From positions 2,598 to 66,597 of the forward strand of contig JBLIRN010000015.1 of assembly GCA_049472315.1 (NCBI GenBank): a stretch of DNA of 64,000 nucleotides, in the 5' to 3' direction. The notes beneath the pieces were generated by a model. That model was not told the origin of the DNA and ran no database searches. It worked only from the letters and a program-made list of their open reading frames with translations. The translations under genes and the position numbers were made by a program. This DNA is from a bacterium (GTDB lineage Bacteria; SZUA-182; DTGQ01; JAFGSM01). Position 1 is the stretch's first letter. Each line of letters opens with the position of its first letter. Below are positions 23,489-41,291 of this stretch, piece after piece.

Positions 23489-23910
23489 AATGGTCCCCCT
23501 TTCAGGATGTTAAGGATAGACACTGTCTTACGCATGGAAACATACGCTGGTGATAAGGACCCGAAGTCTGACCTGGATCCGGAAGAATCATTCGTGGATT
23601 CGCGCTGTATATACAATATATATACTATTTCAAATGAAATTCCTTTTCAACCCGGTAGTGGGAGAAATCAAGGAGCAGGGCATGTAATCCGACCGCCTTT
23701 TTCCCCGTCTTTACTATTGGGTATTCTTTGTATATTATTTCCATAATGGTTCGATTCCTTGACATTGCGAATCATTATGGTATTATGTAAATGAGCATTT
23801 ACTAACAATATTTTGTATCGAGCCTACTTAAGCATAGGGGGATTGTTTGGATCAGATAGCCTGAATACATGATCGTGCTGAATCAACCGAGAAGAACAAT
23901 AGGAGCAATA

Positions 23911-24564
23911 ATGCAAATACATGAGGAATTTCTTATATTCCTGGGTCAATGCGTAGACAAGGAGAGAGACGCCTGGGACGGTTTTGTCAAGAAATACAGC
24001 AACCTTATGTACCTTTACATTATAAGGACACTGAAAAGGTACTCCCATCCGGTGCAGTATGAGGAGGTCGATGAAATCTTCAACTGTATCTTTCTGGCAC
24101 TTTTAGAGAATGACTGTAAAAGGATGCGGAGTTTTCGCGGCCGCAACGAGCAATCCTTTGTGGCGTATCTGCGCGAGATCTGCTTTCATATGACCATTGA
24201 TTTTTTGAGGAGACAGAAGCCATTCGTCGACCTTGAGAAGATGCAATATTGTGTTTCCGCCCGTGACAACTATAATGGGATTGATTACCGTGACCTGAAA
24301 CAGCTCATCGGCATAATCAAGAATGATCTCCCGGAGCGGCACAGGTACCTGTTCACGTTGATGTATGAGGAGGACCTTTCGTCATCCGAAATCGCATCCA
24401 TCATGGGCATAAACCTCAACGCCCTCCACCAGTTGAAGTTTCGGATGATGAAGAATTTTGTCAAGATCGCAAAACGCAAGCGATTGTACCATGAGCTGAA
24501 GACATTTATTCACCAGCAGGTACCTCTTATGGTGGGGCTCAATGAAATCGGGTCGGTGATTTGA
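23911..24564 (+). CDS. RNA polymerase sigma-70 family ECF-type sigma factor
   Basis: ORF 23869..24564. Start is the ATG at 23911, after an AGGAG RBS. The region-2-like segment has a non-canonical aromatic core (SNLMYLYI). Region 4 HTH: LSSSEIASIMGINLNALHQLKFR. Sits in an AT-rich island. Confidence 0.7.
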   Translation: MQIHEEFLIFLGQCVDKERDAWDGFVKKYSNLMYLYIIRTLKRYSHPVQYEEVDEIFNCIFLALLENDCKRMRSFRGRNEQSFVAYLREICFHMTIDFLRRQKPFVDLEKMQYCVSARDNYNGIDYRDLKQLIGIIKNDLPERHRYLFTLMYEEDLSSSEIASIMGINLNALHQLKFRMMKNFVKIAKRKRLYHELKTFIHQQVPLMVGLNEIGSVI

Positions 24565-24759: not shown

Positions 24760-25359
24760 ATGGAAAGGAAACCCACCCAGATACGCAGGGCGGAGATTGT
24801 GCAGGCTGCGTGGGAGCTCATCATGGAAGAAGGGGTTCATGGGCTCACCATCAAAAATATCTGCAGGAAGAACAATATAACGGAGGCTGCCGTATACCGG
24901 CATTTTGCAGACAAGCACGCCATCCTCATGGCGCTCATCGACAGCTTCGAGGTAAATCTCATGCAGGCCCTGGACAACCCCATACGAAATTACCGGAATC
25001 CCCTGCAGCGGCTCAAGGAGGTCATGAAGACACACATGGCCTTTACCGAGGAGAAAAAGGGGATCCTCTTTGCCGTCACCGCCGAGTCCATCCACTTCAA
25101 CGACGACGAATTGCGCCGGCGGATCCTTGATGTTATCAATAGATACAGGGACAGGATCAAGGAGATGCTCAAGGAGGCGAAGAACGAGGGATTGCTGCGG
25201 GAAGACACCAATCTGGATGCAGCGAGTCTGACCTTCTTCGGCCTCATTCAGGCCGCAATCGTTCAATATGCATTAACCAGCTATACCATTCCACCCATTT
25301 CGAAGTTCAATACCCTCTGGGATATCTTTCTGAGGGGGGTTCAAAGGTGCGGGGCATAG
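24760..25359 (+). CDS. TetR/AcrR family transcriptional regulator (paralog 1)
   Basis: N-terminal HTH LTIKNICRKNNITEAAVYRHFADKH. About 55-60% identical to the minus-strand TetR at 29723..30337. Confidence 0.9.
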   Translation: MERKPTQIRRAEIVQAAWELIMEEGVHGLTIKNICRKNNITEAAVYRHFADKHAILMALIDSFEVNLMQALDNPIRNYRNPLQRLKEVMKTHMAFTEEKKGILFAVTAESIHFNDDELRRRILDVINRYRDRIKEMLKEAKNEGLLREDTNLDAASLTFFGLIQAAIVQYALTSYTIPPISKFNTLWDIFLRGVQRCGA

Positions 25360-25372: not shown

Positions 25373-26329
25373 ATGAAAGGGACATCTTACTCCAGCATCA
25401 TTGCATGGCTGACGGCCCTTTTCATATGCCTGTTTCCTCTCACCGGCCATGGAAGCGGGGCAAGGATTGCGATGTTTCTCTGGAGCGGTGAAACGAAGGC
25501 GGAAGAGGGCTTCAGGGATGTGCTTGCGGAGGAATTTCCCGAGCAGGCACCGACCTATACCCTTTTTGACGTAACAAAGGATATGGACTGTCTGGAACGC
25601 CATCTGGAGGACTTCGACGAGATTCAGTATGATCTTATCTACACGTTCGGCTCGAAGGTAACCTCTGAGATCGCAGGGCGATATACGAAGCCCCCCATTG
25701 TCTTCGATATCGTCTTTGATCCGGTGGGTTATGGGATCATTGAATCCTGGGACATGAAGCAGCCCAATCTCACCGGGGCATCAAACGCCGTTCCCGCGGA
25801 TATACAGATAGAGAAGATGCGGGAGGTCTTCGGCGAAGGGGCGATCGGTTTTATTTACAATCCCGCGGATGAGAAATCTGTGCAACTCAAGGAGGCCATG
25901 GAGCGATACCTCGAACAGGCCGGGAGTATCCTGCTCCCCTTCGAGTTCCGCAACAATTTTCGTCCCCTGCGCTCATATCTGGAGCGGGTGAGCAACCAGG
26001 CGGTGTGCATCTATCTTCCATCCGAATGGAGTATATCGAAATACGTCTCCCGCATCATTTCCGAGGGTACCCGGCGAAAGATCCCCACCTGCGTCACCAG
26101 CATATCCTACCTGAGAAAGAAGGCGCTCCTGTGCATAAGCGCGGAGTACTACAATGTAGGCAGAATGGCCGGGGCGCTTGCCGCACGCATCCTCAAGGGG
26201 GATGATCCGGCAGACCTGCCTGTCCGGCGCCCCTCGGCAACGGACGTGAAGCTCTACATCAATTCCTCGACCGCCAAGCGACTCAGGATGCAATTTCCCC
26301 CGGAGCTGGACGTAACCTATATAAAATAG
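25373..26329 (+). CDS. ABC transporter substrate-binding protein (ABC_sub_bind/PF04392-like) with signal peptide
   Basis: N-terminal signal IIAWLTALFICLFPLTG. Periplasmic binding-protein-like layout. Starts 14 nt after the TetR paralog 1 stop. Confidence 0.65.
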   Translation: MKGTSYSSIIAWLTALFICLFPLTGHGSGARIAMFLWSGETKAEEGFRDVLAEEFPEQAPTYTLFDVTKDMDCLERHLEDFDEIQYDLIYTFGSKVTSEIAGRYTKPPIVFDIVFDPVGYGIIESWDMKQPNLTGASNAVPADIQIEKMREVFGEGAIGFIYNPADEKSVQLKEAMERYLEQAGSILLPFEFRNNFRPLRSYLERVSNQAVCIYLPSEWSISKYVSRIISEGTRRKIPTCVTSISYLRKKALLCISAEYYNVGRMAGALAARILKGDDPADLPVRRPSATDVKLYINSSTAKRLRMQFPPELDVTYIK

Positions 26330-27381: not shown

Positions 27382-29574
27382 CTATATCCGGGGAGGATGG
27401 ATCTGCGTCCGAGGCGGTTCCTTTTTTGTGGGCCTTCCGGGCCGGGCACCCTCGGAGAGGGAGTAGGAATGGAATCCCCCCGAGAGGATGTCAACCCTGC
27501 CGTCCGGATTGGATACCACCGCGTCGTAGTCACCCGCGGGGAGGGTGGCGGGTATCAGGACCTGAAGCTCTCCGGAATTGATGTACCGGGCTGCCAGGCA
27601 GGGGGTAGGAAGCATCCGCATGATGTGGATGCCGCTGTACCCATCCGCCACGAAGATACATCTGCCGTGCACAGCTACGCCCAGTGTCTCGCCCACGGTG
27701 GGGTAGGTGCCCACCTTCTTCGGATAGGCCGGGTCGCTCACGTCGATCACCACAATCCCCAGCCCGGCCACTGCTGCATAGGCGTATCTGCCTGCCGCCG
27801 CAACATCGATGGCGCTTCCCGGCGTGTCAAAGCTTCCTGATAGACGTGGATGGGTGGGGTCACTGATATCGATGATGCGGACTCCCCTTTCCCCGTTTGC
27901 CAGAAAGGCGAATCCACCGCTCACCGCTGTCCCGTATATCCTTCCGTATGCAGGGAGTGCCCCCGCCAGCCGGGGCCGGGACGGGTTACTGACGTTGATC
28001 ACCTTCAGCCCGGTTTCCCCGTCTGCCACGTAGGCAAAGGCACCGTCTATGACCACATCGATGGCGCTTCCCTCGGTGTCGAACCGGCCGATCTCCCGCG
28101 GGGAACGAGGATCGCTCACATCGATGATGTCCAACCCCTCCCGGCCGGCGGCGACATATGCGCATGTCCCGCTCACCGCCACCCTGACGGCGCTCCCCTG
28201 GATAGCGAATGAGCCCGCACGGCGGGGTGCCCGCGGATCACTCACCTCCACGATGAGGAGGCCCTTGTCGCCGTCCGCAACGAAGGCGAACCTGCCGCTC
28301 ACTGCAACCCCGAGGGCATTTCCCGGGGTATCATACGCGCCTGTCTTCTTCGGATGCGGAAGGTCCCCGATATCGACGATGTGCAGGCCCTTGGCGAAAT
28401 CGGCGACATAGGCATAGGTACCGCTTATGGCAATATCATGGGCCCTCCCCGGTGTCTTGAAGTCCACCACCAGACGCGGGTTTGCCGCGTCACTCAGGTC
28501 GATGATACGTAATCCCTGGTTGAGGTCGGCGATATAGGCATACCTGCCGCGCACCGCGACATCGTAAGCCGTGCCCGGTGTCGGATATATCCCCACCTGC
28601 TTCGGTAGTCCGGGATCGCTTACATCCACGATGAGGAGTCCCTTTTTCGAGTCCGCCACATAGGCAAACCTGCCGCCTGCCACCGCTCCAAAGGCCTTCC
28701 CTGGGACCTCCAGCACACCTACACCCCGTGGATGCGCGGGATCGCTTACATCAACGATATGGAGCGCATCGGTTGCGGCGATATATGCGTATCGTCCGTT
28801 CACGGAGATGTCATTCGCCGTGCCGGACGTCGAAAATATACCTATCTCCTGTGGATGCGCGGCATCGCTTATATCGATGATATGCATTCCCTCCTCCCAA
28901 TCCGTGATATAGGCGTATCCACCCTCCACCGCGATACCCGATGCCGTACCTTTCATCGCGAGCGCACCCGTACGCTCGGGTTTGGACGGATCGCTGACAT
29001 CCACGATCACGAGCCCCTCCCCTCTATCCGCCAGATAGATCCGGTTTCCACTCACCGCCAGGTCGTAGGCCTCACCCGGTGTGCCGAAATGCCCAACGGA
29101 CACGGGGCGGCCCGGCTCGCTCACATCGATGATGCGCAGCCCCTTTTCGAAGTCGGCGACATAGGCGTATCTGCCGCTCACTACCACCCCGTAAGCCTTG
29201 CCCGGGGTATCCTGGGCACCCACCAGCCTCGGTGCCGAGGGGTCGCTGATGTCGATGATCTGCAATCCCCTTCCGAAGTCGGCGACATAGGCATATCTGC
29301 CGCTCACTACGACGCTGTAAGCCTTGCCCGGGGTCTTCTCTCCTGCCGTCAGATTTGAACCCACCCGGTACAGATGCACCTCGGTATCGGGGGTAAATCC
29401 CGTACCATGGATGGAAATCCCTGCGGATGAGGCATTTCGGTAGGAATCGGGAACCACGCCGGTGATGCGCAGGGGCTCGAAATACTCGCCGCGGGCACGA
29501 GTACTGATCATTATCGGGAGGAGCAAGACACAAGAAAGACAACAGGTCAAAATTGTGTATAGGAATCTATTCAT
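27382..29574 (-). CDS. LVIVD-repeat beta-propeller protein with IPT/TIG-like domains, secreted
   Basis: ORF 27382..29757. Probable start is MNRFLYT at 29574, with a signal peptide. More than 12 repeats of the pattern G.AYGVAVSGRYAYVAD...GL.IVDVSDP...P. Ig-like IPT segments at both ends. Confidence 0.85.
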   Translation of the reverse strand: MNRFLYTILTCCLSCVLLLPIMISTRARGEYFEPLRITGVVPDSYRNASSAGISIHGTGFTPDTEVHLYRVGSNLTAGEKTPGKAYSVVVSGRYAYVADFGRGLQIIDISDPSAPRLVGAQDTPGKAYGVVVSGRYAYVADFEKGLRIIDVSEPGRPVSVGHFGTPGEAYDLAVSGNRIYLADRGEGLVIVDVSDPSKPERTGALAMKGTASGIAVEGGYAYITDWEEGMHIIDISDAAHPQEIGIFSTSGTANDISVNGRYAYIAATDALHIVDVSDPAHPRGVGVLEVPGKAFGAVAGGRFAYVADSKKGLLIVDVSDPGLPKQVGIYPTPGTAYDVAVRGRYAYIADLNQGLRIIDLSDAANPRLVVDFKTPGRAHDIAISGTYAYVADFAKGLHIVDIGDLPHPKKTGAYDTPGNALGVAVSGRFAFVADGDKGLLIVEVSDPRAPRRAGSFAIQGSAVRVAVSGTCAYVAAGREGLDIIDVSDPRSPREIGRFDTEGSAIDVVIDGAFAYVADGETGLKVINVSNPSRPRLAGALPAYGRIYGTAVSGGFAFLANGERGVRIIDISDPTHPRLSGSFDTPGSAIDVAAAGRYAYAAVAGLGIVVIDVSDPAYPKKVGTYPTVGETLGVAVHGRCIFVADGYSGIHIMRMLPTPCLAARYINSGELQVLIPATLPAGDYDAVVSNPDGRVDILSGGFHSYSLSEGARPGRPTKKEPPRTQIHPPRI

Positions 29575-29722
29575 GACGTAGCAGCGATGATTATGGTATC
29601 CGATAACCTCCCTGACTGCCTTTGGCTTCCCCTGGGTCTCCTGTGTGCTGAGTTTTTCCAGAGTCTTGAAGTCAGTTAAAGGATTTTTCTTAGAGTCCAT
29701 GACGGCACTCCTCCTGATGATG

Positions 29723-30337
29723 CTATTTACCCTCAGTATGATCGCCGTCCTCGGCAATCCCCTCCAGAAAGATGTTCCAGAGTTTGCTGAATTTTTTCAT
29801 GGGCGAGACCGTGTAGTTGGTAAGGGCGTACTGCACGATTGCCGTATGAACCATGCCGAAAAAGAGCAGGCTCGCCGAGTCCAGGTTGATATCCCCTCTA
29901 ACCAGACGGCGCCGCTTCCCCTCCTCCAGTATCCCGCGTATCTTGCTGGTGTAGGTGTAGATCACCTCCAGTATCTTGCGGCGCAGTTTGTCGTCATTGC
30001 TGTGGATGGATTCCGCGGTAATGGCGAACAGGATGCCTTTTTGCTCTTCCGTAAAGGACATATGGGCCTTCATGATCTCCTGCAGTCTCAGCAGCGGGTT
30101 CTTGTGGTTTCGGATGGGGTACTCGATGACCCGCATCAGGTTATCCTCGAAGTCATCGGCAAGCGCCATCAAAATGGAGTGCTTGTCCATGAAGTGACGG
30201 TATATCCCGGCCTCCGAGATATTGATCTGCCTGGAGATATTCTTTATGGTAAGATTCTGTATCCCTTCCTGCGCAATCAATTCGATCGATGCATTGATGA
30301 TCTCGTTCCTTCGTTCCTCCGTGGTCTTTCGTTCCAT
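29723..30337 (-). CDS. TetR/AcrR family transcriptional regulator (paralog 2)
   Basis: HTH LTIKNISRQINISEAGIYRHFMDKH. Paralogous to 24760..25359. Leads the LVIVD propeller gene on the minus strand. Confidence 0.9.
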   Translation of the reverse strand: MERKTTEERRNEIINASIELIAQEGIQNLTIKNISRQINISEAGIYRHFMDKHSILMALADDFEDNLMRVIEYPIRNHKNPLLRLQEIMKAHMSFTEEQKGILFAITAESIHSNDDKLRRKILEVIYTYTSKIRGILEEGKRRRLVRGDINLDSASLLFFGMVHTAIVQYALTNYTVSPMKKFSKLWNIFLEGIAEDGDHTEGK

Positions 30338-30395: not shown

Positions 30396-30722
30396 TCAGG
30401 TCCAGTATTTCGGCCTCCCGTAATAGTCATAGATTATCTCTTCCGTTTCCCGGTTCACCGGTGAGGAGGGATCGTACTCTGGATAGTTTTTGAGGGTCTC
30501 CCGGGTAAGATCCACATGCACCTTCGATCCCGCCCAATCGACCTCGGTGATCCATTGAATCGGGACCAGCACCTTTTTGCCGGGAAGCCAGTTGCAGGTA
30601 TCCACGACCAGGTACCGGATGGTCCACTGCTGGTCATCGAAGAAAAAATCCCTCACTGAACCGATTGTGCCGTCTTTGGCCTTTATGGAATAACCCTCCA
30701 ATCCCTTGACGCTTCTGAGCAT
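30396..30722 (-). CDS. PRC-barrel domain protein
   Basis: ORF 30396..30839. Likely start is MLRSVKG at 30722, with an AGGAGGG RBS. PRC-barrel-like GYSIKAKDGTIGSVRDFFFDDQQWTIRYLVVD. Confidence 0.65.
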   Translation of the reverse strand: MLRSVKGLEGYSIKAKDGTIGSVRDFFFDDQQWTIRYLVVDTCNWLPGKKVLVPIQWITEVDWAGSKVHVDLTRETLKNYPEYDPSSPVNRETEEIIYDYYGRPKYWT

Positions 30723-30857: not shown

Positions 30858-30877
30858 GTAAGTTAATATTTACTAAC
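30858..30877. promoter_or_regulatory. 20-bp AT-rich near-palindrome GTAAGTTAATATTTACTAAC (site A of a recurring motif)
   Basis: Lies between the polX 3-prime end and the PRC-barrel gene. Same motif as sites at 33525..33544 and 41272..41291. Confidence 0.45.
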
Positions 30878-30931
30878 ATTATATCACGCATCAGTCATAT
30901 GTCAAGGAACGCTGGACCCGGCGGCATGGCC

Positions 30932-32653
30932 CTATTTCCTTCTCAGGAGTCTCTTCACCTGTTTCCATGATCGGCTATTCAGGACGTCTTCCGGCTCCAG
31001 CCAGCCCCGCCGGGCCTGACCGACGCCGAAGGCCATGAAATCGAGGTCCCTGATGCTGTGGGCGTCCGTGGATATAACGATCTTCAACCCCTTCTCCTTG
31101 GCCATCTTGCAGTGGATGTCGTTGAGATCCAGCCGCACCGGATGGGCGTTGAGCTCAAGGAGGCACCCACGTTCCGCTGCCGCCTGCATGATCTTCTCCA
31201 TGTCCACCTCGTAGGGCGGGCGCTTCTTGATGAGCCTGCCGGTGGGATGACCGAGGATGGTGAAATACGGATTATCCATGGCCCGGATGATGCGCTTGGT
31301 CTGTTTTTGCCTGGAAAGCTTGGCATTGTAATGCACCGAGCAGACCGTGAGGTCGAGCTCCTTGAGGATGTCGTCCGGCAGGTCCAGGGAGCCATCCTCC
31401 AGGATGTCCACCTCAACCCCTTTCACAATAAAAAACGCCTTCTGTCTGCCATTCAATGCATCGATCTCCTTGATCTGCGTGGCAAGCGCCTTTTTGTCCA
31501 GGCCGTGCGCCATGGTCACCCGCTTGGAGTGCTCGGTGATCGCCATGTATTCGTAACCCCTCTCCTTGGCCGCCTTTACCATCTCCTCCAGGCTGAAGTG
31601 CCCGTCGGTGCGATTGGTGTGGGTGTGCAGGTCCCCCTTGATATGATCGAGGGTGATCAGGTCCGGCAGCCGTCCCTCCCGCGCCGCCTCCACCTCTCCC
31701 CGGCCTTCCCGAAGCTCCGGGGGGATAAAGGGAAGCCCCACCTGCACGAACACATCCTCCTCCCGTTTCCCGGCGATTCGCTTCTTTCCCTTGAATATGC
31801 CGTATTCGTTGATCTTGAGCCCCTTTTTTACCCCGATCTTCCGGATGGCGATGTTGTGGGCCTTCGACCCGGTGAAATAGTGGATGGCCGCGCCGTAGCT
31901 TTCCTGGGAAAACACCCGCAGATCCACCTGGGTCCCGGAGCGGAGTATCACCGTGGAGCGCATATCTCCGTGGGACACCACCGTGTCCACGTCCTCGTAT
32001 TTCACGAACCGATCCATGACCGGAGACCCCTTCGTGCAGGTCACCAGGATGTCCAGGTCCCCTACCGTTTCCTTGTGGCGCCGGTAGCTCCCCGCCACCT
32101 CGACATCCTTTACTCCGTCCACCTTCTGCAGGTAACTCCGGTAGTCCTCGGCGATCTCCCTGGCCACCAGCAGCCGTATGCGTCCCTTTTCCTCCTTGAC
32201 TCCCTGGATGCCCTCCAGTATGGACTGCTCCGTCTTTTCCCCGAACCCGGAGATCTCCCTGATCTTCCCATTCTCTGCCGCCTTCTTTAAATCGGAGATT
32301 GTGGTGATCCCCAGTTTCTCGTGGAGCGTCTTTACCCGCTTGGGACCCAGCCCGGCTATATTGAGCAGTTTGCTCAACGCGGGAGAAACCTCCTTTTTGA
32401 GATCCTCCAGGAGGGGAAGTTTACCGGTTTCCACGATCTCCTTGATCTTTCCGGCAAGGTCCTTGCCGATCCCCGACAGGCGTGAGAGGTCCTCGTTCTT
32501 TTTCACCATGTCAGCGGCGCTGGAGGAAAGGCCCCCTACCGTCCGGGCAGCGTCCCGATATGCACGAACCCGAAATGCGTTCTCCCCCTTGATCTCGAGA
32601 AGGTCCGCCACCTGGTTGAATATGGCGGCAATATCCGTGTTGTGAACAGGCAC
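30932..32653 (-). CDS. polX: DNA polymerase X family protein with C-terminal PHP phosphoesterase domain
   Basis: ORF 30932..32782. Likely start is the GTG at 32653, after a GGAGG RBS (MPVHNTDIAAIFNQVADLLEIKGENAFRVRAYR). Pol beta-like HhH and nucleotidyltransferase motifs (GSYRRHKETVGDLDILV). PHP motifs (HTHTNRTDGH, ITEH, TDAHS). Confidence 0.9.
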   Translation of the reverse strand: MPVHNTDIAAIFNQVADLLEIKGENAFRVRAYRDAARTVGGLSSSAADMVKKNEDLSRLSGIGKDLAGKIKEIVETGKLPLLEDLKKEVSPALSKLLNIAGLGPKRVKTLHEKLGITTISDLKKAAENGKIREISGFGEKTEQSILEGIQGVKEEKGRIRLLVAREIAEDYRSYLQKVDGVKDVEVAGSYRRHKETVGDLDILVTCTKGSPVMDRFVKYEDVDTVVSHGDMRSTVILRSGTQVDLRVFSQESYGAAIHYFTGSKAHNIAIRKIGVKKGLKINEYGIFKGKKRIAGKREEDVFVQVGLPFIPPELREGRGEVEAAREGRLPDLITLDHIKGDLHTHTNRTDGHFSLEEMVKAAKERGYEYMAITEHSKRVTMAHGLDKKALATQIKEIDALNGRQKAFFIVKGVEVDILEDGSLDLPDDILKELDLTVCSVHYNAKLSRQKQTKRIIRAMDNPYFTILGHPTGRLIKKRPPYEVDMEKIMQAAAERGCLLELNAHPVRLDLNDIHCKMAKEKGLKIVISTDAHSIRDLDFMAFGVGQARRGWLEPEDVLNSRSWKQVKRLLRRK

Positions 32654-32655
32654 CG

Positions 32656-33393
32656 TCAGCCTCCCTGAATCATGGATTGGAGCCGCAGGGCATTCCGAGC
32701 CGCATACCCTGCCTGGTCGTTGTCGAAATAGCAGTAGACGGTCCTTCCCCCCTTGGACCACGTGGAAAGGGCGCCCGCCCATCCGGCCAGTTCCTCTGTT
32801 TTGTATGATCCCTCATAAGGGCCTCCCGGGCCGTGGAGGCGGATATAGACGAAATCCGCAGTGATCTCCTTGGGTGATATGCTGCCGTTCAGGTCGAAGA
32901 TGCAGAAGGCGGCATTGCGTTTTTCCAGGGCGTGGTACACCCCTTCGTTGAACCAGCGGGGATCACGGAATTCGAAGGCATAGCGGTGGTTTACGGGCAA
33001 TGTATCGAGGAATGCATCCAGCCGCTCCAGGTTGGAACGCCATCGGGGGGGCAGTTGAAAAAGCACCGGGCCCAGTGTTGACCCCAGCGCCTCCACCCGG
33101 TCCAGAAAGGTGGACACCGGCTCCTTCGGGTCCTTGAGCCGCTTTATATGGGTGATGAAGCGACTCGCCTTGACCGCGAAGATGAACCCCTCCGGTACGG
33201 TTGTGCTCCATATCTTCAGTGTCTCCGTATCAGGGATCTGATAGAAGGTGTTGTTGATCTCCACCGTTCGGAAGCGATCGGCATAGTATTCCAGAAAGTC
33301 CCTGGATCGCATCTCCCGGGGATAGAAACTTCCCTTCCAGTGTTGATAGTGCCATCCTGATGTCCCGATATGTATGCTGCCCTTCCTGTTCAT
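32656..33393 (-). CDS. DUF72 (YecE-like) domain protein
   Basis: HIGTSGWHYQHWKGSFYP. TVEINNTFY. GPVLFQLPP. Stop abuts the polX start, suggesting translational coupling. Confidence 0.85.
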   Translation of the reverse strand: MNRKGSIHIGTSGWHYQHWKGSFYPREMRSRDFLEYYADRFRTVEINNTFYQIPDTETLKIWSTTVPEGFIFAVKASRFITHIKRLKDPKEPVSTFLDRVEALGSTLGPVLFQLPPRWRSNLERLDAFLDTLPVNHRYAFEFRDPRWFNEGVYHALEKRNAAFCIFDLNGSISPKEITADFVYIRLHGPGGPYEGSYKTEELAGWAGALSTWSKGGRTVYCYFDNDQAGYAARNALRLQSMIQGG

Positions 33394-33524
33394 TGTTCTC
33401 CTCTGAGGCGGCTTTTACCGATGCATTCGCATTTTCCCGGCGCGGTCATGAAAAGTGGCCCATGGGCGCCGCAGGCTGTCTCCGCACTTGCACAATGGAA
33501 AGGTGCGGTGTATACTGTTAAATT

Positions 33525-33544
33525 GTTAGTAAATATTCACTAAC
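33525..33544. promoter_or_regulatory. 20-bp near-perfect palindrome GTTAGTAAATATTCACTAAC (site B of the recurring motif)
   Basis: About 130 nt upstream of the DUF72-polX operon start. One mismatch from a perfect palindrome. Confidence 0.5.
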
Positions 33545-33750
33545 ACTACCATGATACCATGAAATTGCATCTTGTCAAGGGGGGCAAACGGGAGCAGCAA
33601 TTCTAATTTTGATGTTCCATCGTCGTGAGCTGACATGTTTGACTATACTCTCGACCCGAAGGTCAAAAATGAGCATTGCTGAAACGGCAGGCCCTATGGC
33701 CGGCAGGATGGTGAGCCAATGCATTTTGGCGCAGGTTGTGTCGAAGGCAT

Positions 33751-34440
33751 TTACCTATCGGCGGGTTTGAGGAACGTACTCAGGTGGTCGTAGAGAACCG
33801 GAAGGAGAAAGAACAGCGCGAGTGAGATGAATGCGATCCATGCCTTCCATGAGAAGATGTCATCCGGACTTTTGATGTGTGCAAGCTGCTGGCCGGCAAA
33901 GGTGCAGATGAACGAACCGGGAAGTGCCCCTACCGATGTGGTCCACACGAAGGTCTTCAGGGGGATACCGGTGATGCCGGCAAGATAATTGATAAGGAAA
34001 AAGGGGAGAAGGGGAATCAGGCGCAGGCTCAGCATATAGTTGTGGCTGTGGTCGCGTATCCTTTCGTTGAACAATCGCAACTGGTCACGGAACCGGTGAC
34101 GAACCCATCCCCCTATCAGATACCGGGCGCTCAGGAAGGCCAGGGTCCCTCCTATCACCGTGGCAAGGTTGATATATATCATGCCAAGAATCACCCCGAA
34201 GAGGAAGCCTGCGGCTACGGAAAGGATCAGGGCGCCCGGCAGCAGGAAGGCGGTCATGATATACATAGCGATAAATGCAAGCAGGGAAGGAACATAGTGA
34301 CGATCCACGAATTCCTTGATCTTGGAGCGGTTATCCTTGAGCCTCTGGAAGGCCAGATCCTGGCCGGTCCTGGAGGTCCATACGAAAAAAATCGTCACTG
34401 CGACCAGGATGATTATGAGTCCGAGGGATTTGATTTTCAT
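33751..34440 (-). CDS. TVP38/TMEM64 (DedA/SNARE-associated) family membrane protein
   Basis: ORF 33751..34497. Likely start is MKIKSLG at 34440. Multiple TM helices. DedA core FLLPGALILSVAAGFLFG ... ARYLIG ... INYLAGITGIPLKTF. Confidence 0.8.
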   Translation of the reverse strand: MKIKSLGLIIILVAVTIFFVWTSRTGQDLAFQRLKDNRSKIKEFVDRHYVPSLLAFIAMYIMTAFLLPGALILSVAAGFLFGVILGMIYINLATVIGGTLAFLSARYLIGGWVRHRFRDQLRLFNERIRDHSHNYMLSLRLIPLLPFFLINYLAGITGIPLKTFVWTTSVGALPGSFICTFAGQQLAHIKSPDDIFSWKAWIAFISLALFFLLPVLYDHLSTFLKPADR

Positions 34441-34561
34441 GATACTGATACATCCTTCCCCAACATGCCATGCCAGCGCTGCCGATCCAATATACACGGT
34501 ATCACAGGAGGGTCAGCTGTAACAAGCAGTGCCTCTGCAATGCATGGGGGGGAAAAATCGT

Positions 34562-35311
34562 ATGAGCGAACCGACATTCAGGGTTATGACCTACAATGTC
34601 CACAGTTGCATCGGCAGTGACCGGAAGGCGTCGCCTTTGAGAACAGCCGAGGTGATCCGACAGCACTCCCCGGACATTGTGGCGCTGCAGGAGCTCGATG
34701 CGGGTCAGGAACGAAGCGGGGCGCAGTTTCAGGCCCATGTCATCGCACAGAGCCTGAATATGACCTATCGGTTTCATCCCTCCGACATTGTGGGAGGGGG
34801 AGAGTACGGAAACGCCATCCTGAGCCGCTTTCCCATCCGGTTGGTAAAGGCCGGGGATCTCCCCGGATATGTGTATTCCGGACGTGTCCCTGAGAAACGA
34901 GGTGCCCTATGGGTGGAGGTGTACCTGGCCGACCGGGGGGTGCAGGTCGTCACCACCCACCTGGGGCTTACCCGCAGGGAACGGCTGGTCCAGGCACACG
35001 CCCTGCTCGGCCCGCAATGGTTCAATCATCCGGAGTGCCGTTGCCCTCTGGTCATCACCGGCGATTTTAACGCACTCCCCTGTTCACAGGTATATCGTCT
35101 TTTCCGGCGGGTGCTGCGTGACATACAGTGCCACGGGGGAAACGGGAATCGACCCCGGAGTACATGGCCGAGCCGCTGTCCGGTATTTCGCATCGATCAT
35201 GTGTTTGTAACCCCGGACATCGTGGTGCATGGCGTACGGGTCCCCCGAACCAGGCTGGAGCGCACGGCATCGGATCACCTCCCGCTGGTTGCTGATCTGG
35301 GATTCTTGTGA
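34562..35311 (+). CDS. endonuclease/exonuclease/phosphatase (EEP) family protein
   Basis: ORF 34529..35311. Start is the ATG at 34562. EEP motifs FRVMTYNVHS, DIVALQELD, ITGDFN, SDHLPLVADL. Confidence 0.8.
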   Translation: MSEPTFRVMTYNVHSCIGSDRKASPLRTAEVIRQHSPDIVALQELDAGQERSGAQFQAHVIAQSLNMTYRFHPSDIVGGGEYGNAILSRFPIRLVKAGDLPGYVYSGRVPEKRGALWVEVYLADRGVQVVTTHLGLTRRERLVQAHALLGPQWFNHPECRCPLVITGDFNALPCSQVYRLFRRVLRDIQCHGGNGNRPRSTWPSRCPVFRIDHVFVTPDIVVHGVRVPRTRLERTASDHLPLVADLGFL

Positions 35312-35349
35312 TGTCGGGAGGAAAAAGTGCATGACCGGAGAGACCAATA

Positions 35350-37053
35350 ATGGAGAAAATTCTCGCCCCCGGGCGTAATTGCTGGGGAAACTTTCAGGTC
35401 CGGGATAGCGGGCTTCTCATTGACGGCCGCAACTATTACCGGGCCTTTTATCATGCCGCCCGGCAAGCGCAGCGCTACATCCTCATCGCCGGATGGCAGT
35501 TTGACAGTGACGTGCGGCTGCTTCGAGGCGCGGACGCGGCAGAGGCCGGCGGGGACGTGCGCCTGCTCCCCTTTCTCAAGGGGCTTTGCCGGGGTAACCC
35601 GGACCTCGCCATCTATATCCTGGCATGGGATTTCAGCATGCTCTTTTCCATAAAGCGCGAATGGTTTCAGGAGTGGATCTTCAACTGGACCACCAACCGG
35701 CAGCTTCGGTTTCGCTTCGACAGCAGGCATGCGGTGGGTGCCAGCCATCATCAGAAGTTCGTGGTGATCGACGGGGTGCTCGCATTCGTGGGTGGCTTTG
35801 ATATCTGCGCCGAGCGGTGGGATGATCGTGATCACCGGCCGGAGAATCCCGATCGCGTCAACAGTGCGGGCAAGGGGTATGAGTTGTATCACGATATACA
35901 GACCTATCACGTCGGGCCGGCGGCGATGAGGCTGACGGAGCTTTTCAAGGATCGATGGGCGCATTCCGATGGAGGAACGCTCGATCTGCCTCCCCCTCCC
36001 CGCGGGTATCATTTTGACGTGGAAGGGGGTATCGCCATTGCCGCCGACCGGGTCGCCATAAGCAGGACCCAGTCAAAAACCCTGGTGCCTGCCTGGAAAT
36101 CGATCCGTGAGATCCGCCGGCTTTTCACAGATGCCATCCATGGTGCGGAGCGGTTGATTTATATAGAGAATCAGTACTTCAGCTCCCAGGCTGTTTACCG
36201 GGCACTGCTCGACCGGATGCGGAAGACGAGTGGGGAATCCCTCCAGGTGATCGTCATCCTCCCCCAAAAACCCCATGCGCTGATCGAGGAGATTTCCCTG
36301 GGGATCGCCCAGATGAGCATGATCCATTCCCTTACGGAGGCGGCGGCCGGACAGGGGCATTCGCTGGGATTCTATTATCCTGCATCCGTATCGAGCAAGG
36401 ATACATCGGCTTCGGTATACGTGCATGCGAAGCTGCTTCTGGTTGACGACCGTTTTCTTACCGTGGGATCGGCGAACATCTCCAACCGGAGCATGGGGCT
36501 GGATACCGAGCTGAATGCCTCCTGGGAGGCAACAACCGGTGATCAGCGCGCAGTCATTCGTTCCATCCGGCGGACCAGGGTGAGCCTCCTCGCCGAACAT
36601 GCCGGTATAAAGTCCCGCCGGGACCTTCGGCGGTTGTGCCGCACGGATGGTATCGTTCGTTTCCTTGACGGTCTTGCGGATCGCCCCCGTTCGCCCCTGC
36701 GTCACCACACCACGGAGACCCTTTTCAAGAATGCATCATGGCTTGAGGAGATAAAGATCGAGGACCTTTCCCTGGACCCGGAGAGACCCATTGTGGAGGA
36801 GAACATCTACGAGCTTATCTCCCGGGACACCTCCGGCCTTTTCGCCAAGGGTATCACCCTGCTGCGTACAATGAAACGCGGACACCCCTCGAATTCCGAC
36901 GGGAAGCCCAGGCGGGGACGGCAATTCCACTTCCCGTTATGGGGGCGCTTTATGGACACTACCAGCCTCGTCGGTCATACCCGGCATTTAAAATGGATCA
37001 CCCTCTTCCTCATCATGCTCCTTGCGGCAGCGGTGGTTCTGTTACTCATGTGA
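35350..37053 (+). CDS. phospholipase D / cardiolipin-synthase-like protein (two HKD motifs) with C-terminal TM anchor
   Basis: HKD-1 HHQKFVVIDGVLAFVGGFDI. HKD-2 VHAKLLLVDDRFLTVGSANISNRS. C-terminal hydrophobic tail ITLFLIMLLAAAVVLLLM. Confidence 0.9.
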   Translation: MEKILAPGRNCWGNFQVRDSGLLIDGRNYYRAFYHAARQAQRYILIAGWQFDSDVRLLRGADAAEAGGDVRLLPFLKGLCRGNPDLAIYILAWDFSMLFSIKREWFQEWIFNWTTNRQLRFRFDSRHAVGASHHQKFVVIDGVLAFVGGFDICAERWDDRDHRPENPDRVNSAGKGYELYHDIQTYHVGPAAMRLTELFKDRWAHSDGGTLDLPPPPRGYHFDVEGGIAIAADRVAISRTQSKTLVPAWKSIREIRRLFTDAIHGAERLIYIENQYFSSQAVYRALLDRMRKTSGESLQVIVILPQKPHALIEEISLGIAQMSMIHSLTEAAAGQGHSLGFYYPASVSSKDTSASVYVHAKLLLVDDRFLTVGSANISNRSMGLDTELNASWEATTGDQRAVIRSIRRTRVSLLAEHAGIKSRRDLRRLCRTDGIVRFLDGLADRPRSPLRHHTTETLFKNASWLEEIKIEDLSLDPERPIVEENIYELISRDTSGLFAKGITLLRTMKRGHPSNSDGKPRRGRQFHFPLWGRFMDTTSLVGHTRHLKWITLFLIMLLAAAVVLLLM

Positions 37054-37071
37054 AAAGGGCAACCATCTGTT

Positions 37072-37242
37072 TCACCATTCTCTTTCAGGAACACCAAGAC
37101 GCTTCAGCCACCAGGTCATGCCCATGGCGGCAGCGGTGGTGACCATGATAACGGCCGCATGCAATGCGAATCCCAGAGGGGTGGCATTCCGGATAATCGG
37201 CCCTGCTGGAGCAGCATATACATGGGTATCACAGGAGGATAT
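37072..37242 (-). pseudogene. remnant of a DedA/TVP38 C-terminal end: degenerate copy of the 3-prime end of the PLD-DedA fusion gene
   Basis: Minus-strand frame reads ...AAPAGPIIRNATPLGFALHAAVIMVTTAAAMGMTWWLKRLGVPEREW*. The C-terminus of gene 38262..40394 reads ...ADRAGAIIRNPAPLEFVLLAAAIILTATAALGVVWWLKRLGVSGSER*. About 70% nucleotide identity over ~115 nt. No start codon; an in-frame stop lies upstream. Confidence 0.55.
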
Positions 37243-37455
37243 CCTTTAAGGCATGAATATGGAAGGGAATTTATAAAGGACACGTTAAGGTGGGGATTTT
37301 TATAATCTCACGAGGGGGACATGCAGGCTAATTTCAGTTCCATCAAAATCATTATCAGTGCCGGTTATGGTCAGATGGTGTTTTTCGGCTGCTACGTACT
37401 GCATTGCATTCTCTTGACAAGACCATGGCTATTCCATTTCCCCCGTATCAAGGAG

Positions 37456-37779
37456 TTAATAAAGCCCCAATTGAACCTTGATCGCCTCCCCGATCTTGAG
37501 CATGTCATCTTCAGAGAGAATCCCCGCAGGTTTAAAGAGCCGTAATTTACTCACCGTGGCCAGTTGATCGGCCATGGCCTTGCTTTCCCTGCCGTCAAAC
37601 ATGACAATCGCTTCACTTGGATATTGACGGCCTGTCTTACTCGTCAGGGGAACAACCTGAACGCGATTGAGGAATCTATTGGAGGCATCATTGCTGACGA
37701 TTACGGCAGGACGCCTTTTTTTGATCTCACCGCCCACGGAGGGATCAAAATTGACCCACCAGACCTCACCCCGCTTCAT
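37456..37779 (-). CDS. mazF: type II toxin-antitoxin system PemK/MazF family toxin (mRNA interferase)
   Basis: ORF 37456..37911. Start is the ATG at 37779 (MKRGEVWWVNFDPSVGGEIKKRRPAVIVSND...VVPLTSK). Classic MazF/PemK pattern. Confidence 0.85.
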   Translation of the reverse strand: MKRGEVWWVNFDPSVGGEIKKRRPAVIVSNDASNRFLNRVQVVPLTSKTGRQYPSEAIVMFDGRESKAMADQLATVSKLRLFKPAGILSEDDMLKIGEAIKVQLGLY

Positions 37780-37996
37780 GGGTGATGTCCCTGAAGGTGG
37801 CCTCTGCCCACTCCAAGGCCTCCTCTTCGCGCTTTTTGTCCTTTGACATTTGGGAATAGGCGGATTCCAGATTGGGGCGAACGACATGGGGACGCACGAG
37901 ATTTTCAACAAATTTGCTGATTCGACGAGGACCTATAACCTTATGAAGACCCTCGTAAACTTCCTCATCCACGGTTATGGTCAGCTTTTTCTGCAT
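37766..37996 (-). CDS. type II toxin-antitoxin system antitoxin (RHH/MazE-like), cognate of the downstream MazF
   Basis: 76-aa ORF. Overlaps the toxin start by 14 nt. N-terminal beta-strand KKLTITVDEEVYEGL is typical of ribbon-helix-helix or swapped-hairpin antitoxins. AGGAGG RBS. Confidence 0.7.
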   Translation of the reverse strand: MQKKLTITVDEEVYEGLHKVIGPRRISKFVENLVRPHVVRPNLESAYSQMSKDKKREEEALEWAEATFRDITHEAG

Positions 37997-38016
37997 GTCA
38001 GATCCTCCTTCACGTT

Positions 38017-38037
38017 TATACGTATAGTATACGTATA
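38017..38037. promoter_or_regulatory. candidate TA operator/promoter: two tandem copies of the 10-bp palindrome TATACGTATA immediately upstream of the antitoxin RBS
   Basis: TATACGTATA-G-TATACGTATA at 38017..38037. The RBS (RC AAGGAGG) is at 38003..38008 and the antitoxin start at 37996. Confidence 0.5.
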
Positions 38038-38261
38038 ATGCTGCATGATGTCAAATATGAATAACTTAAGAAAAAATACTCCATAACCTACCCATTGGAC
38101 CGACTTTTGGCGCATTCACGGCGAGGATGATACGGAAGGCCCGGCGTGCCGCTTGGTTTCCCACCACCGGTCGAGGTGAAACATACGGCTTGCATGAGAG
38201 AGGTTCAGCGATGTATTCATGGTGCCTGAGGGTGTTTGGAATGATTGCCGCTTTTACGATT

Positions 38262-40394
38262 TTACCGTTCACTTCCGGAGACACCGAGACGTTTCAGCCA
38301 CCACACCACGCCGAGGGCGGCAGTGGCGGTGAGTATGATCGCTGCGGCCAGCAATACGAATTCCAGGGGTGCGGGGTTGCGGATAATGGCCCCCGCCCGG
38401 TCTGCAACGATGGCAACAATCAGAAGACCCGGCAGCACACCGAGGATGGTGCCCGGCAGGAAATGGCGGAAACGGGTGTGTGATGCCCCGGCCACAAGAT
38501 TCACCAGTGTAAAGGACGCCACAGGCACCACCCGTACCGCCAGGACCGAACGCACCCCGTTTCGAGCGATGAGCCGGCTGACTATATTGAGCCGGGGACC
38601 GGCGATCCGCCGGATGATCCCCCGGCCGAGGAGGCGGCCAAGCCAGAAGGTGAACACGGCGCCTGCCAGTATCCCCGCATAGGCGTAAGCGAAACCGGTA
38701 AATGGGCCAAAAATCACCACGGTGGCCACGATGAGCAGGGTGACCGGCAGGGCGATAAGTGAGAAAACGGCGTATACGAGCATGACCCACAGGGACGTGA
38801 GCTTGGAGCTCCTGATTATTGCAGCAAGTTGTTTCAGGGCCTCCACGTCGATCCATTCCCCGAAAGGCGACCACCGCCAGGCGGCGACGAGCCCTGCAAC
38901 GGCTGCAAGAATGAGGGTGACCACAACGATGCGCTGCCTGGCGGAACGGCGGTGCTCGGAGGGAAGCATCTCCCGGGCCAGACGATCGGGATCGATGGGC
39001 ACCTCCGGATCGATAACCACCGCCTCGGGCACCATGGCGTCAACGGCAAGCGGGATGTCCGCAGGAATGGGCCCCATGCTCCGTTCGCCGCCCTGAAGCT
39101 GTTGAATTGCCCTGATCAGCGATCCGGTCCCCGAATGCACCTCTGCAACCCGTTCCGGGGTCGCCCCCAGGTGCTCGGCAAGAAGCCGGCAGCGCAGGCT
39201 GGCAATGGCTGCGGCATGGGTTTCGGTGAGGGCCTCCATGGCCAGATCGCACTCCGTGTCATATCCCATGGACCGGTTGTTGAGATTGGCCGAGCCTATG
39301 CGCACGAACCGGTCATCGACGATCATCAGCTTGCTGTGAAGATTGATCTGCGCTGCCTCCAGTGCCGCATGACGCGGATAGCACACCAGAAGTCTTTCCC
39401 GTTTATCCACCTCCCTCAACCTTTTGACGAGCCGTGCCCGCAACACCTCCATGGTCACCTCCTCCAGCCAGCCTCCTCCGGACAGGCGGGAGACAATGAC
39501 TACCTCCGGTCCTTTCGCCTCCTGCAGGCGCGTTGACAGTGCCTCTGCAATCTCCGCTGAGGTGAGGTATTGATTTTCGATATAGATGAACCGGCGGGCC
39601 GCGGCAATGGCGTCAAGGTAGAGCTGTTTCACCTCCCGCACCTCCGGGTGTTGTTTGTACCGGGGCTCGGTGCGGGCAATGGCCACCTCTGCATCGCGTA
39701 TATCCGGTGAAACCCCGGCGGGCCATGGATCAGGGCCTTCCGGGGCATGTGATGAGGGAGGCCGGTGGCCGGTGGCACGGCGCCACCGCTCCCCGGCCAG
39801 TTCACCCAGGGCGGCTGCGGCCTTCCCGTCGACCAGCATCTGTATGTCGTGAAAGGGCGGATAGGGGTTCCCTTGCGGATTGATACGGCGTGGGTCACCG
39901 GGGAGATGCTCGGGGGTGTCCCATCGTCCCCTGGTGAGATCCAGTCCCCCCACAAAGGCCACGGCATCGTCGATCACCACGATCTTCTGATGGTGGGACC
40001 CACCCACAGGATGGGCGGCGTCCAGGCGGAAGCGGAGTCTGGGATGGGAGGTCCATGCAGGCCGGAAAACGGGAAACAACTCGCGGTTGAATGCGTAGAC
40101 CATGGCAAAGTCCCAGTCCAGCAGATACACCTGAAGGTCCCTGCGCTGCGAGACCAGGGCGTCGAGGAATTCACCAAGCCGAACCGGCAGGTCGTCCTGA
40201 GGCGTGTCCCGCACCATTCGGACCTGGCTGTGCATATCCCAGCCGACGATGAATAGGGAACGCTGTGCACGGGCCGCTGCCTCCCTGAAGGCCGCGAAGT
40301 AGGATGCGCCGTCTATCAGAAAGGCCACCCTGTCCGACCTGAAGATACGCCAGCAGTTGCGGCCCGGACGAAGGATGCGGTCACTCATCTTCAT
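38262..40394 (-). CDS. phospholipase D-like (two HKD motifs) fused to a C-terminal DedA/TVP38 membrane domain
   Basis: HKD-1 HHQKIVVIDDAVAFVGGLDL. HKD-2 LHSKLMIVDDRFVRIGSANLNNRS. C-terminal ~230 aa with multiple TM helices and DedA-like pattern (FGPFTGFAYAYAGILAGAVFTFWLGRLLG...). Long antisense ORFs 38269..38874(-) and 38829..39536(+) are rejected. Confidence 0.9.
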   Translation of the reverse strand: MKMSDRILRPGRNCWRIFRSDRVAFLIDGASYFAAFREAAARAQRSLFIVGWDMHSQVRMVRDTPQDDLPVRLGEFLDALVSQRRDLQVYLLDWDFAMVYAFNRELFPVFRPAWTSHPRLRFRLDAAHPVGGSHHQKIVVIDDAVAFVGGLDLTRGRWDTPEHLPGDPRRINPQGNPYPPFHDIQMLVDGKAAAALGELAGERWRRATGHRPPSSHAPEGPDPWPAGVSPDIRDAEVAIARTEPRYKQHPEVREVKQLYLDAIAAARRFIYIENQYLTSAEIAEALSTRLQEAKGPEVVIVSRLSGGGWLEEVTMEVLRARLVKRLREVDKRERLLVCYPRHAALEAAQINLHSKLMIVDDRFVRIGSANLNNRSMGYDTECDLAMEALTETHAAAIASLRCRLLAEHLGATPERVAEVHSGTGSLIRAIQQLQGGERSMGPIPADIPLAVDAMVPEAVVIDPEVPIDPDRLAREMLPSEHRRSARQRIVVVTLILAAVAGLVAAWRWSPFGEWIDVEALKQLAAIIRSSKLTSLWVMLVYAVFSLIALPVTLLIVATVVIFGPFTGFAYAYAGILAGAVFTFWLGRLLGRGIIRRIAGPRLNIVSRLIARNGVRSVLAVRVVPVASFTLVNLVAGASHTRFRHFLPGTILGVLPGLLIVAIVADRAGAIIRNPAPLEFVLLAAAIILTATAALGVVWWLKRLGVSGSER

Positions 40395-40512
40395 TGCATC
40401 CCATCTCCCTTCGCCGCCTCACCCTGTTTGGGGTGGATTCTTGATCCTTGCAGGTCTCGGATGGGAGGGGATCTGATTGAAAGGACCCCTTCGGGATCAT
40501 CGGCCTGGCTGA

Positions 40513-40803
40513 TTACTTGAATCTGGACAGGGCCGACTTGACCGCCTCGCCCATGGAATCCCAGGCGCTCTCAACGCCTTCCTTGAGGTCCTCCCAGGCA
40601 TCCCCGCCGGCATCCTGAAGGGCCTTCAACCGTTCCTCCAGTTCCTTGCGTTTGGCCTGCAGATTCTCAATCTGCTCATGGAGCTTGATCTTCCTTTCGG
40701 CCTCCGCCTGATCCATCTTTGCCCTGAACTTGTCGATCTGGGCATTCCATTCGTCCAATTTGGCCTTCAACTGTGCCACATAGGCGTCCCTTTTTTCGCT
40801 CAC
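40513..40803 (-). CDS. hypothetical coiled-coil protein
   Basis: ORF 40513..40884. Likely start is the GTG at 40803, after an AGGAGG RBS (MSEKRDAYVAQLKAKLDEWNAQIDKFRAKMDQAEAERK...). Heptad-rich, about 96 aa. Confidence 0.5.
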   Translation of the reverse strand: MSEKRDAYVAQLKAKLDEWNAQIDKFRAKMDQAEAERKIKLHEQIENLQAKRKELEERLKALQDAGGDAWEDLKEGVESAWDSMGEAVKSALSRFK

Positions 40804-41271
40804 GTCGTTTTCCTCCTGTGCATAGGGATACGATGTTCGGTGACTGATGTGTCGAGTGCCTCCTCGAGTTCTGCCCATGGGCACCGCTTGCTAGGGTTGC
40901 CCGCAATGTCCCCGTTTCCGGATAACATTATCGGTCAGGCAAACGATGCGCTGGTGAAGGATAAACGCGGTGTATCGTGTCATGTGTTCGCTGCGGCGAA
41001 TATCGTCATGAAGGAGTCGCGTCCGAATTTATAAGAAGCAGAAGGATCAAAGGAAAAAGGCAAGACAGCGTGTCATTACTAGTTTACAGCACCCTGAAAT
41101 CCCTTGTCAATATGGGCGTTCGGATATCCGGGCACATTTCAAGGGCCGCCGCGATTATCCGCTGGCTGACCCGCATGTGCCGGCTACATCGGTATGCCTT
41201 GGAACATGCCATGTGCCGAAGTCATGGGGAGCGGGGCATCAACTTGACACGCAACAACGATCTGATAATAG

Positions 41272-41291
41272 ATATGCAAATATTTACTAAC
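41272..41291. promoter_or_regulatory. site C of the recurring AT-rich motif (half-palindrome ...CAAATATTTACTAAC)
   Basis: The 13-mer AATATTTACTAAC at 41279..41291 is identical to site A. Lies about 380 nt upstream of the AI-2E transporter gene in a 630-bp non-coding gap. Confidence 0.4.

Follow-up and report, generated by a model that had tools for sequence, protein, structure and literature searches.

A palindrome resembling the SlmA-binding sequence as a predicted operator of two paralogous TetR-family regulators in an uncultured bacterium

We analyzed a 20-bp palindrome that recurs in intergenic regions of a 64,000-nt stretch of DNA (hereafter, the window; contig JBLIRN010000015.1, positions 2,598 to 66,597 of the forward strand, GenBank assembly GCA_049472315.1) from an uncultured bacterium of the GTDB lineage SZUA-182; DTGQ01; JAFGSM01. 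With a probability that we put at roughly 0.85, this palindrome is the operator of a subfamily of SlmA/FadR-like TetR repressors, which is represented by two paralogues in the window and would govern a small local regulon. The motif itself, its position relative to promoters, the TetR genes adjacent to it, and the conservation of motif and TetR genes together across phyla are the observations on which this assignment is built. The proposal of the initial annotation, that the motif is a candidate operator defining a regulon, thus stands in the form of an operator-type palindrome located in intergenic promoter regions, with a regulon that is small.

Palindromic sites and promoters in the window

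The 13-mer AATATTTACTAAC occurs in exact copies at 30865-30877 (+), 33525-33537 (-) and 41279-41291 (+), compared with 0.00 copies expected from 100 dinucleotide-preserving shuffles of the window. The recurrence that drew attention to the motif is therefore real and far beyond chance, although the G+C content against which it was first judged unexpected, ~59%, is in fact ~55-56% (range 49-61%). The near-perfect 20-bp palindrome originally noted at 33525..33544 is likewise genuine, with GTTAGTAAATATTCACTAAC lacking one base of a perfect palindrome, but the architecture first ascribed to it, two 7-bp arms around an AATATT center, had to be abandoned. Instead, the motif proceeds in 4-bp steps, GTnA GTnA N4 TnAC TnAC, that is, four quarter sites within 20 bp, which amount to two 16-bp inverted repeats (GTnA-N8-TnAC) that overlap and are shifted by 4 bp relative to each other.

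Scanning the window with a quarter-site model of 12 fixed positions (GTNAGTNANNNNTNACTNAC) identified two perfect sites, A and B, against none expected, and, with at most one mismatch allowed, three sites, A, B and D, against 0.09 expected (maximum of 2 in 300 shuffles). At up to three mismatches, there was no excess over background in the window (9 sites observed vs 18.5 expected), and the three-mismatch matches at 38050 and 49447 were dismissed as falling within this background. A further site, C, rises above background solely through its exact 13-mer, not by the quarter-site model.

The three stronger sites are tightly associated with promoters. In a promoter scan covering 23-42 kb of the window, three of the four best sigma-70-type matches have the motif straight after the -10 box: sites A and D directly abut the -10 boxes of promoters 30905..30878 and 23759..23786, respectively, whereas site B begins 6 bp downstream of that of promoter 33578..33551 (Table 1). 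A copy related to the motif, GCATTTACTAACAATATT, had been placed at 23796-23813, upstream of the gene for an extracytoplasmic function (ECF) sigma factor; this copy is present, but occupies 23795-23812, and its proper alignment with the motif is at 23787-23806, our site D, because it is there that the motif abuts the -10 box. Site D does precede the sigma factor gene, as described, but heads the entire sigma/TetR-2 operon rather than the sigma factor gene alone. Similarly, sites A and B had been thought to bracket the DUF72-polX operon, which functionally they do not, given that site A serves the next promoter, that of the PRC-barrel/TetR-1/choice-of-anchor-B operon. Near site B, we also noticed a weaker promoter-like match at 33489-33516 (+; TGCACA-16-TATACT, 9/12) that points rightward into the site. 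No open reading frame (ORF) faces it, the VTT gene being convergent, and it could be the start of an antisense or small RNA, or nothing.

Both the unit headed by site A and that headed by site D contain a TetR gene, TetR-1 and TetR-2, respectively, such that the regulator, to which the initial annotation had given no name, now has two SlmA/FadR-like candidates in the window, each encoded in a site-headed operon. The choice-of-anchor B gene begins 23 nt past the end of TetR-1, whereas the 195-bp gap preceding TetR-2 (24565-24759) holds no second operator.

Site C is a different matter. It lies ~470 bp from the start of an sll1863-family gene and ~380 bp from that of an AI-2E transporter gene, and is flanked by TTGACA hexamers at 41244-41249 (+) and 41315-41320 (-), but no promoter beside it passes the promoter scan. 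The earlier statement that this site precedes the AI-2E transporter gene is correct as to position, with the qualification that we are dealing with a half site, for which the target gene is uncertain and function is doubtful. Public gene calls include a 93-aa ORF over site C (41070-41351, +), which is probably spurious, given the absence of a Pfam match and the presence of promoter-like sequence within it; were it real, site C would be intragenic.

The three identical 13-mers are packed into 11 kb, with a CCTTGACA hexamer close to each, and could, in principle, be the terminus of a dispersed repeat or of a miniature mobile element, or else stem from the duplication of a promoter cassette, without participation of any regulatory protein. 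When the flanks of the sites were aligned in both orientations, however, the common parts consisted only of the 20-bp motif and the CCTTGACA/TTGACA-type promoter hexamer, at a variable distance from each other, so that there is no longer repeat unit, and the hexamer is shared because promoters are located there, as the promoter scan indicates. Moreover, the 20-mer is maintained next to TetR genes in unrelated phyla, within unrelated flanks, including those of GC-rich actinomycetes (see below). We therefore consider an origin of the motif as a repeat terminus, which the initial annotation had raised as a possible refutation, to be extremely improbable. A scan of the whole window against Rfam at gathering thresholds detected no RNA family, which places the motif outside any known riboswitch or leader.

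Conservation with TetR genes and relation to characterized operators

For phylogenetic footprinting, we retrieved loci encoding TetR-1 homologues (44-61% identity) from other metagenomes; these loci were chosen blind to the motif and fell into seven groups. In all seven, a palindrome of the same type is present in the promoter of the operon that holds the TetR gene, in two cases as a diverged variant. The operator-type sites are GTTAGTTAGTATTAACTAAC in L005-L010, GTTAGTTAATACTCACTAAC in L012/L013, GTTAGTGAATATTAACTAAC in both L014/L015 and L018/L019, and GTTAGTGAATACTAACTAAC in L016; in L011, an FKBP-secretin-TetR operon is headed by a three-mismatch site, and L017 (3920-3945), which encodes the most distant homologue fetched (P0057), has the variant GTAAGTAAACAAATACTTAC with GTAAGT arms. 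Exactly one site was found per 5-10 kb homologue locus. The operon partners vary and include an acetyltransferase/deacetylase, FKBP, CarD, an aldehyde dehydrogenase and a glycosyltransferase, leaving the TetR gene as the single constant neighbor. The variant in L017 hints at co-variation between protein and operator. GTAAGT recurs in the consensus of the Escherichia coli SlmA-binding sequence (SBS) and in one arm of site A in the window.

The association also emerged when we started from the motif. When 185,579 species, each represented by a single genome, were scanned with the pattern GTTAGTNARTAYTNACTAAC, at least 120 loci matched, and the ORFs of the 120 listed loci were searched with TetR-1 and a hidden Markov model (HMM) of the family. 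The matches listed come from Bacteroidota, Ignavibacteria, Spirochaetota, Bacillota, Actinomycetota, Omnitrophota, Cloacimonadota, Latescibacterota, Kuenenia and others. Among them, 64 of the 120 motifs precede the start of a homologous TetR gene by 0-150 bp, and mostly by 0-30 bp; in 18 further loci, a TetR homologue is no more than 1.5 kb away, and the motif often follows shortly after its 3' end. When the listed loci are oriented, the motif comes straight after promoters of the TTGACA/TATAAT type or, in Bacteroidota, after TAnnTTTG-type elements. In GC-rich actinomycetes, it forms an isolated AT-rich island in divergent intergenic regions, which, judging from base composition, looks like a clear case of selection keeping an operator against the compositional trend. 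Five of the actinomycete loci (L036, L054, L064, L133 and L136) have the 20-mer ~20-30 bp from the TetR start and ~20 bp from the start of the divergent gene.

Other recurrent neighbors among the listed loci encode RND/MMPL transporters, TolC-like and membrane-fusion proteins, Fe-S/cupin and hybrid-cluster proteins, and cyclase-like proteins, and this variety implies that the TetR clade as a whole controls diverse functions. A single Prolixibacteraceae contig, JARKOX010000117.1 (L023 and L024), carries two perfect sites, the first of which abuts the gene of a TetR homologue, while the second precedes, by 44 bp, a gene for an adenylate-cyclase-like membrane protein, a family that recurs beside the motif in 8 listed loci. 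Multi-site regulons of this TetR clade thus seem to exist in other phyla, too.

From this pattern, we infer that the TetR proteins bind the sites. Because this step is drawn from sequence comparison, and because the operons at sites B and C contain no TetR gene, the possibility has to be weighed that the sites belong to an unlinked transcription factor, for example, Rex or one of the MarR/GntR type, with the TetR genes being members of its regulon rather than encoding the binders. We regard this as unlikely. The TetR homologue is the sole consistent neighbor of the motif, abutting it in 64 of the 120 listed loci and accompanying it in all seven homologue groups, whereas other neighbors vary, and the motif fits the published operators of the closest characterized TetR proteins but not the Rex consensus quoted in the initial annotation. 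The resemblance to Rex boxes suggested there is confined to general traits, namely, an AT-rich inverted repeat near promoters and a dimeric repressor. The half sites are TTGTGAA/TTCACAA for Rex, compared with GTTAGTnA/TnACTAAC here, the protein family is different, sites A-D do not fit TTGTGAA-N-TTCACAA, and no Rex gene linked to the motif was seen at the sites examined. The closest operators, namely, the SBS, the FadR box and that of BkaR, are all bound by TetR proteins.

TetR-1 and TetR-2 share 61% identity. Among proteins with structures in the PDB, the closest to TetR-1 by sequence are SlmA (E 1.6e-17) and then Bacillus subtilis FadR (YsiA). The AlphaFold model of TetR-1 (predicted local distance difference test score, 92) matches the folds of FadR and SlmA best, with template modeling scores of ~0.8 (0.79-0.82), FadR (3whc, 0.81-0.86) being the top Foldseek match. 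Its scores against the NCBIfam models for SlmA (NF007015, 89.8 bits) and FadR (NF053878, 72.7 bits) are below the respective cut-offs of 120 and 200, so TetR-1 is a member of neither family. The 58 homologues of TetR-1 in the protein collection come mostly from uncultured bacteria, with the named ones belonging to Candidatus Omnitrophota. The recognition helix SE(A/P)A(I/L)YRHFxSK is common to the 64 motif-adjacent TetR proteins, both window paralogues and SlmA, and the N-terminal consensus of the 64 proteins, GIQGLTIKNLAKKIGISEPAIYRHFESK, is shared by both paralogues as well.

The closest published counterpart of the motif is the SBS, the site of the nucleoid-occlusion factor SlmA known from E. 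coli and Vibrio, with the consensus AAGTAAGTGAGCGCTCACTTACGT, also written GTAAGTGAGCGCTCACTTAC, and GTTAGTGACCATTTACTTAC in SBS17 (PMC4423959). Its 20-bp design, GTnAGTnA-N4-TnACTnAC, is that of site B, although the E. coli consensus has a GC-rich 4-bp center, whereas that of the window sites is AT-rich. On the protein side, SlmA is the best sequence match to TetR-1 and among its two best matches by fold, and the SEAxxYRHF recognition helix and the DNA-binding residue T33 are kept in the window paralogues. SlmA was found to repress a promoter into which an SBS had been introduced (Psbs::lacZ reporter, in vivo; PMC3573117), and hence, the geometry of the window sites would be sufficient for repression by a protein of this kind.

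This close similarity also invites the alternative that the sites are chromosomal landmarks of the SlmA type, with the TetR homologue acting as a nucleoid-occlusion factor that antagonizes FtsZ when bound to them rather than as a repressor. The motif is nearly an SBS, and SlmA is the best match in both PDB and NCBIfam; nevertheless, we judge this alternative to be very unlikely. Apart from the sub-threshold SlmA score, none of the six residues that SlmA needs for FtsZ antagonism, F65, R73, L94, G97, R101 and N102 (PMC3573117), is kept in either paralogue, the replacements being D/S, V/A, A/T, S/A, E/E and Q/K, respectively. Furthermore, E. coli SBSs have been reported to lie outside promoters (PMC3020112), whereas all strong sites in the window are on promoters, two of them before the operons of the regulators themselves. 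Conversely, no SBS-like site (at most three mismatches to the quarter-site model) was detected within 6 kb of slmA, including the dut-slmA spacer (E. coli K-12 3812000-3818000, L223), such that SlmA, unlike its relatives in this analysis, appears not to be autoregulated through an adjacent site. With the score below cut-off, the FtsZ-related residues replaced and the sites on promoters, we rejected a SlmA-type function for the window TetR proteins.

FadR offers a second point of reference. In the Bacillus halodurans FadR operator, GATGAATGAATACTCATTCAT, one 16-bp inverted repeat is shifted by 4 bp against another, and each of the two accommodates one dimer; the same study counts SlmA with the TetR proteins whose binding mode is a dimer of dimers (PMC5397183). 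This operator and the window motif are equal in length and in their 4-bp periodicity (ATGA ATGA ATAC TCAT TCAT vs GTTA GTGA ATAC TCAC TAAC), and Bacillus FadR (YsiA) is an autoregulated repressor released by a ligand. However, the quarter site in the window is GTnA, not ATGA, with one ATGA in site D only, and the window sites do not match the FadR box ATGAATGA-N4-TCATTCAT. The genes behind the sites differ, too: they encode a PRC-barrel protein, a choice-of-anchor B protein, DUF72, PolX, a sigma factor and a substrate-binding protein, and no genes for beta-oxidation or fatty-acid degradation were found among those behind or beside the sites in the window.

A search of the literature for the motif in connection with TetR proteins, and for SlmA-like regulators outside gammaproteobacteria, yielded one documented relative of the motif, the operator of mycobacterial BkaR (Rv2506/Fad35R). 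This TetR protein is autoregulatory, and a single dimer of it occupies a palindromic 16-bp core, GTTA(N)T(N4)A(N)TAAC, an example of which is GTTAGTGACGATTAAC (PMC3920632). This core corresponds to one of the two overlapping repeats of the window motif, but the BkaR site comprises 16 bp for one dimer and commands a different regulon, compared with the 20 bp and four quarter sites in the window.

Genes and other features around the sites

The sites, their promoters and the surrounding genes are listed in Table 1.

Table 1. Predicted operators, promoters and genes in the window (coordinates are those of the window)
Feature	Position	Strand	Details
Site A, full operator (predicted)	30858..30877	-	GTAAGTTAATATTTACTAAC on +, GTTAGTAAATATTAACTTAC on -; 4/4 quarter sites
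Promoter of PRC-barrel/TetR-1 operon	30878..30905	-	TTGACA-16-TGnTATAAT, 12/12, extended -10 TG
PRC-barrel protein gene, 108 aa, first gene after site A	30396..30722	-	Pfam PRC; gene call mapped from L001
TetR-1, 204 aa, SlmA/FadR-like TetR-family regulator	29723..30337	-	Pfam TetR_N, SlmA-like_C
Choice-of-anchor B / LVIVD-repeat protein gene, 772 aa, last gene of site A operon	27382..29700	-	NCBIfam TIGR04312
Site B, full operator (predicted)	33525..33544	.	GTTAGTAAATATTCACTAAC; 4/4 quarter sites, nearly perfect palindrome
Promoter of DUF72-PolX operon	33551..33578	-	TTGACA-16-TGnTATCAT, 11/12, extended -10 TG
DUF72 gene, first after site B	32656..33393	-	Pfam DUF72, E 1.9e-75
Family X DNA polymerase gene with PHP domain (PolX), second gene of site B operon	30932..32782	-	Pfam DNA_pol_B_thumb, HHH_8, PHP; start codon uncertain
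Site D, operator (predicted)	23787..23806	+	GTAAATGAGCATTTACTAAC; one mismatch to quarter-site model
Promoter of sigma/TetR-2 operon	23759..23786	+	TTGACA-16-TGnTATTAT, 11/12, extended -10 TG
Sigma-70-family (ECF-like) factor gene, after site D	23869..24564	+	Pfam Sigma70_r4_2, E 9.6e-8; region 4 alone detected
TetR-2, 199 aa, TetR-1 paralogue	24760..25359	+	Found with family HMM
ABC_sub_bind-type substrate-binding protein gene, directly after TetR-2	25373..26329	+	Pfam PF04392
Site C, half site	41272..41291	.	ATATGCAAATATTTACTAAC; right half perfect, left half poor; 3 mismatches
sll1863-family stress-protein gene, one side of site C	40513-40803	-	
AI-2E transporter gene, other side of site C	41672-42736	+	
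VTT/DedA gene	33751-34497		
Endonuclease/exonuclease/phosphatase-family gene	34529-35311		
PLD-like gene	35350-37053		
PLD-VTT fusion gene	38262-40394		

Between sites B and C, there is a gene cluster of membrane-lipid type (33751-40394). The same region contains a perfect 21-bp palindrome, TATACGTATACTATACGTATA, at 38017-38037, which consists of two tandem 10-bp palindromes and overlaps the -10 box of a strong promoter (38054..38026, -) driving a small antitoxin-like ORF and a PemK/MazF toxin gene (37766-37996 and 37456-37911, both -). This palindrome looks like the autoregulatory operator of a toxin-antitoxin pair, unrelated to the TetR motif, and with the pair having its own, different palindrome, we rejected 38054..38026 as a promoter associated with that motif.

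Predicted mechanism and significance

Under the TetR-operator interpretation, each full site would accommodate two TetR dimers, placed on opposite sides of the double helix, an arrangement proposed from the analogous binding of SlmA to the SBS and of Bacillus FadR to its box. Because only 0-6 bp separate the -10 hexamer from the site downstream of it, a repressor bound there would lie over the transcription start and obstruct RNA polymerase. Sites A and D would thereby mediate autoregulation of the PRC-barrel/TetR-1/choice-of-anchor-B and sigma/TetR-2/substrate-binding-protein operons, respectively, and site B would place DUF72-PolX under the same control, whereas site C would offer room for one dimer at most. 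Release of the repressor would be brought about by a small ligand binding to the C-terminal domain; since the fold resembles that of the acyl-CoA-binding FadR, our guess is that this ligand is hydrophobic or acyl-CoA-like.

Several points weigh against this interpretation. The whole case is built on comparative sequence analysis, and either paralogue may be the one that binds a given site. Occupancy by two dimers is proposed by analogy, and BkaR, on its 16-bp site, binds as one dimer. In the window, site C amounts to half a site, remote from either neighboring gene, and the left half of site D is imperfect. Across genomes, no TetR homologue is encoded in the 8 kb of 36 of the 120 listed loci, whose motifs may either mark distant members of a regulon or have arisen by chance where the genome is AT-rich. 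Finally, homologues of the DUF72 gene did not show the association. We collected 80 such loci from metagenomes (53-66% identity, 422 kb, 77 with usable upstream sequence), although the homologues may not stem from organisms related to that of the window. There was no site at one mismatch or less in the 422 kb and nothing convincing in the 400 bp upstream, none of the 77 loci had the motif or a TetR of the family, and PolX was linked to DUF72 in only 11 of the 80 loci. Thus, the membership of DUF72-PolX in the regulon looks lineage-specific, unless the homologues are too distant.

Beyond the window, we propose, tentatively and at somewhat less than even odds, that GTnAGTnA-N4-TnACTnAC is not peculiar to gammaproteobacterial SlmA but the ancestral autoregulatory operator of a large, pan-phylum TetR clade, from which SlmA would be derived by losing autoregulation and gaining FtsZ antagonism, and that the window paralogues share this operator and may cross-regulate the sigma factor, PolX and possibly the sll1863-type protein. 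In the literature searched, we found no description of an SBS-type sequence as a widespread TetR operator across phyla. If the proposal is correct, the sigma factor, the PolX repair polymerase and possibly the sll1863-type protein would form a small stress regulon.

These findings link the hitherto anonymous motif to candidate regulators in a form that can be tested, for an uncultured bacterium that is closed to genetics. The predicted operators would put the operons of the two TetR proteins themselves, an ECF-like sigma factor and the DUF72-PolX repair operon under TetR control. The understanding of how TetR repressors work is unchanged by this assignment, which describes an otherwise ordinary gene switch, and it offers a portable operator/repressor pair. 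The occurrence of the same operator, almost identical to the SBS, before TetR genes in many phyla suggests a picture of the ordinary repressor from which SlmA probably arose.

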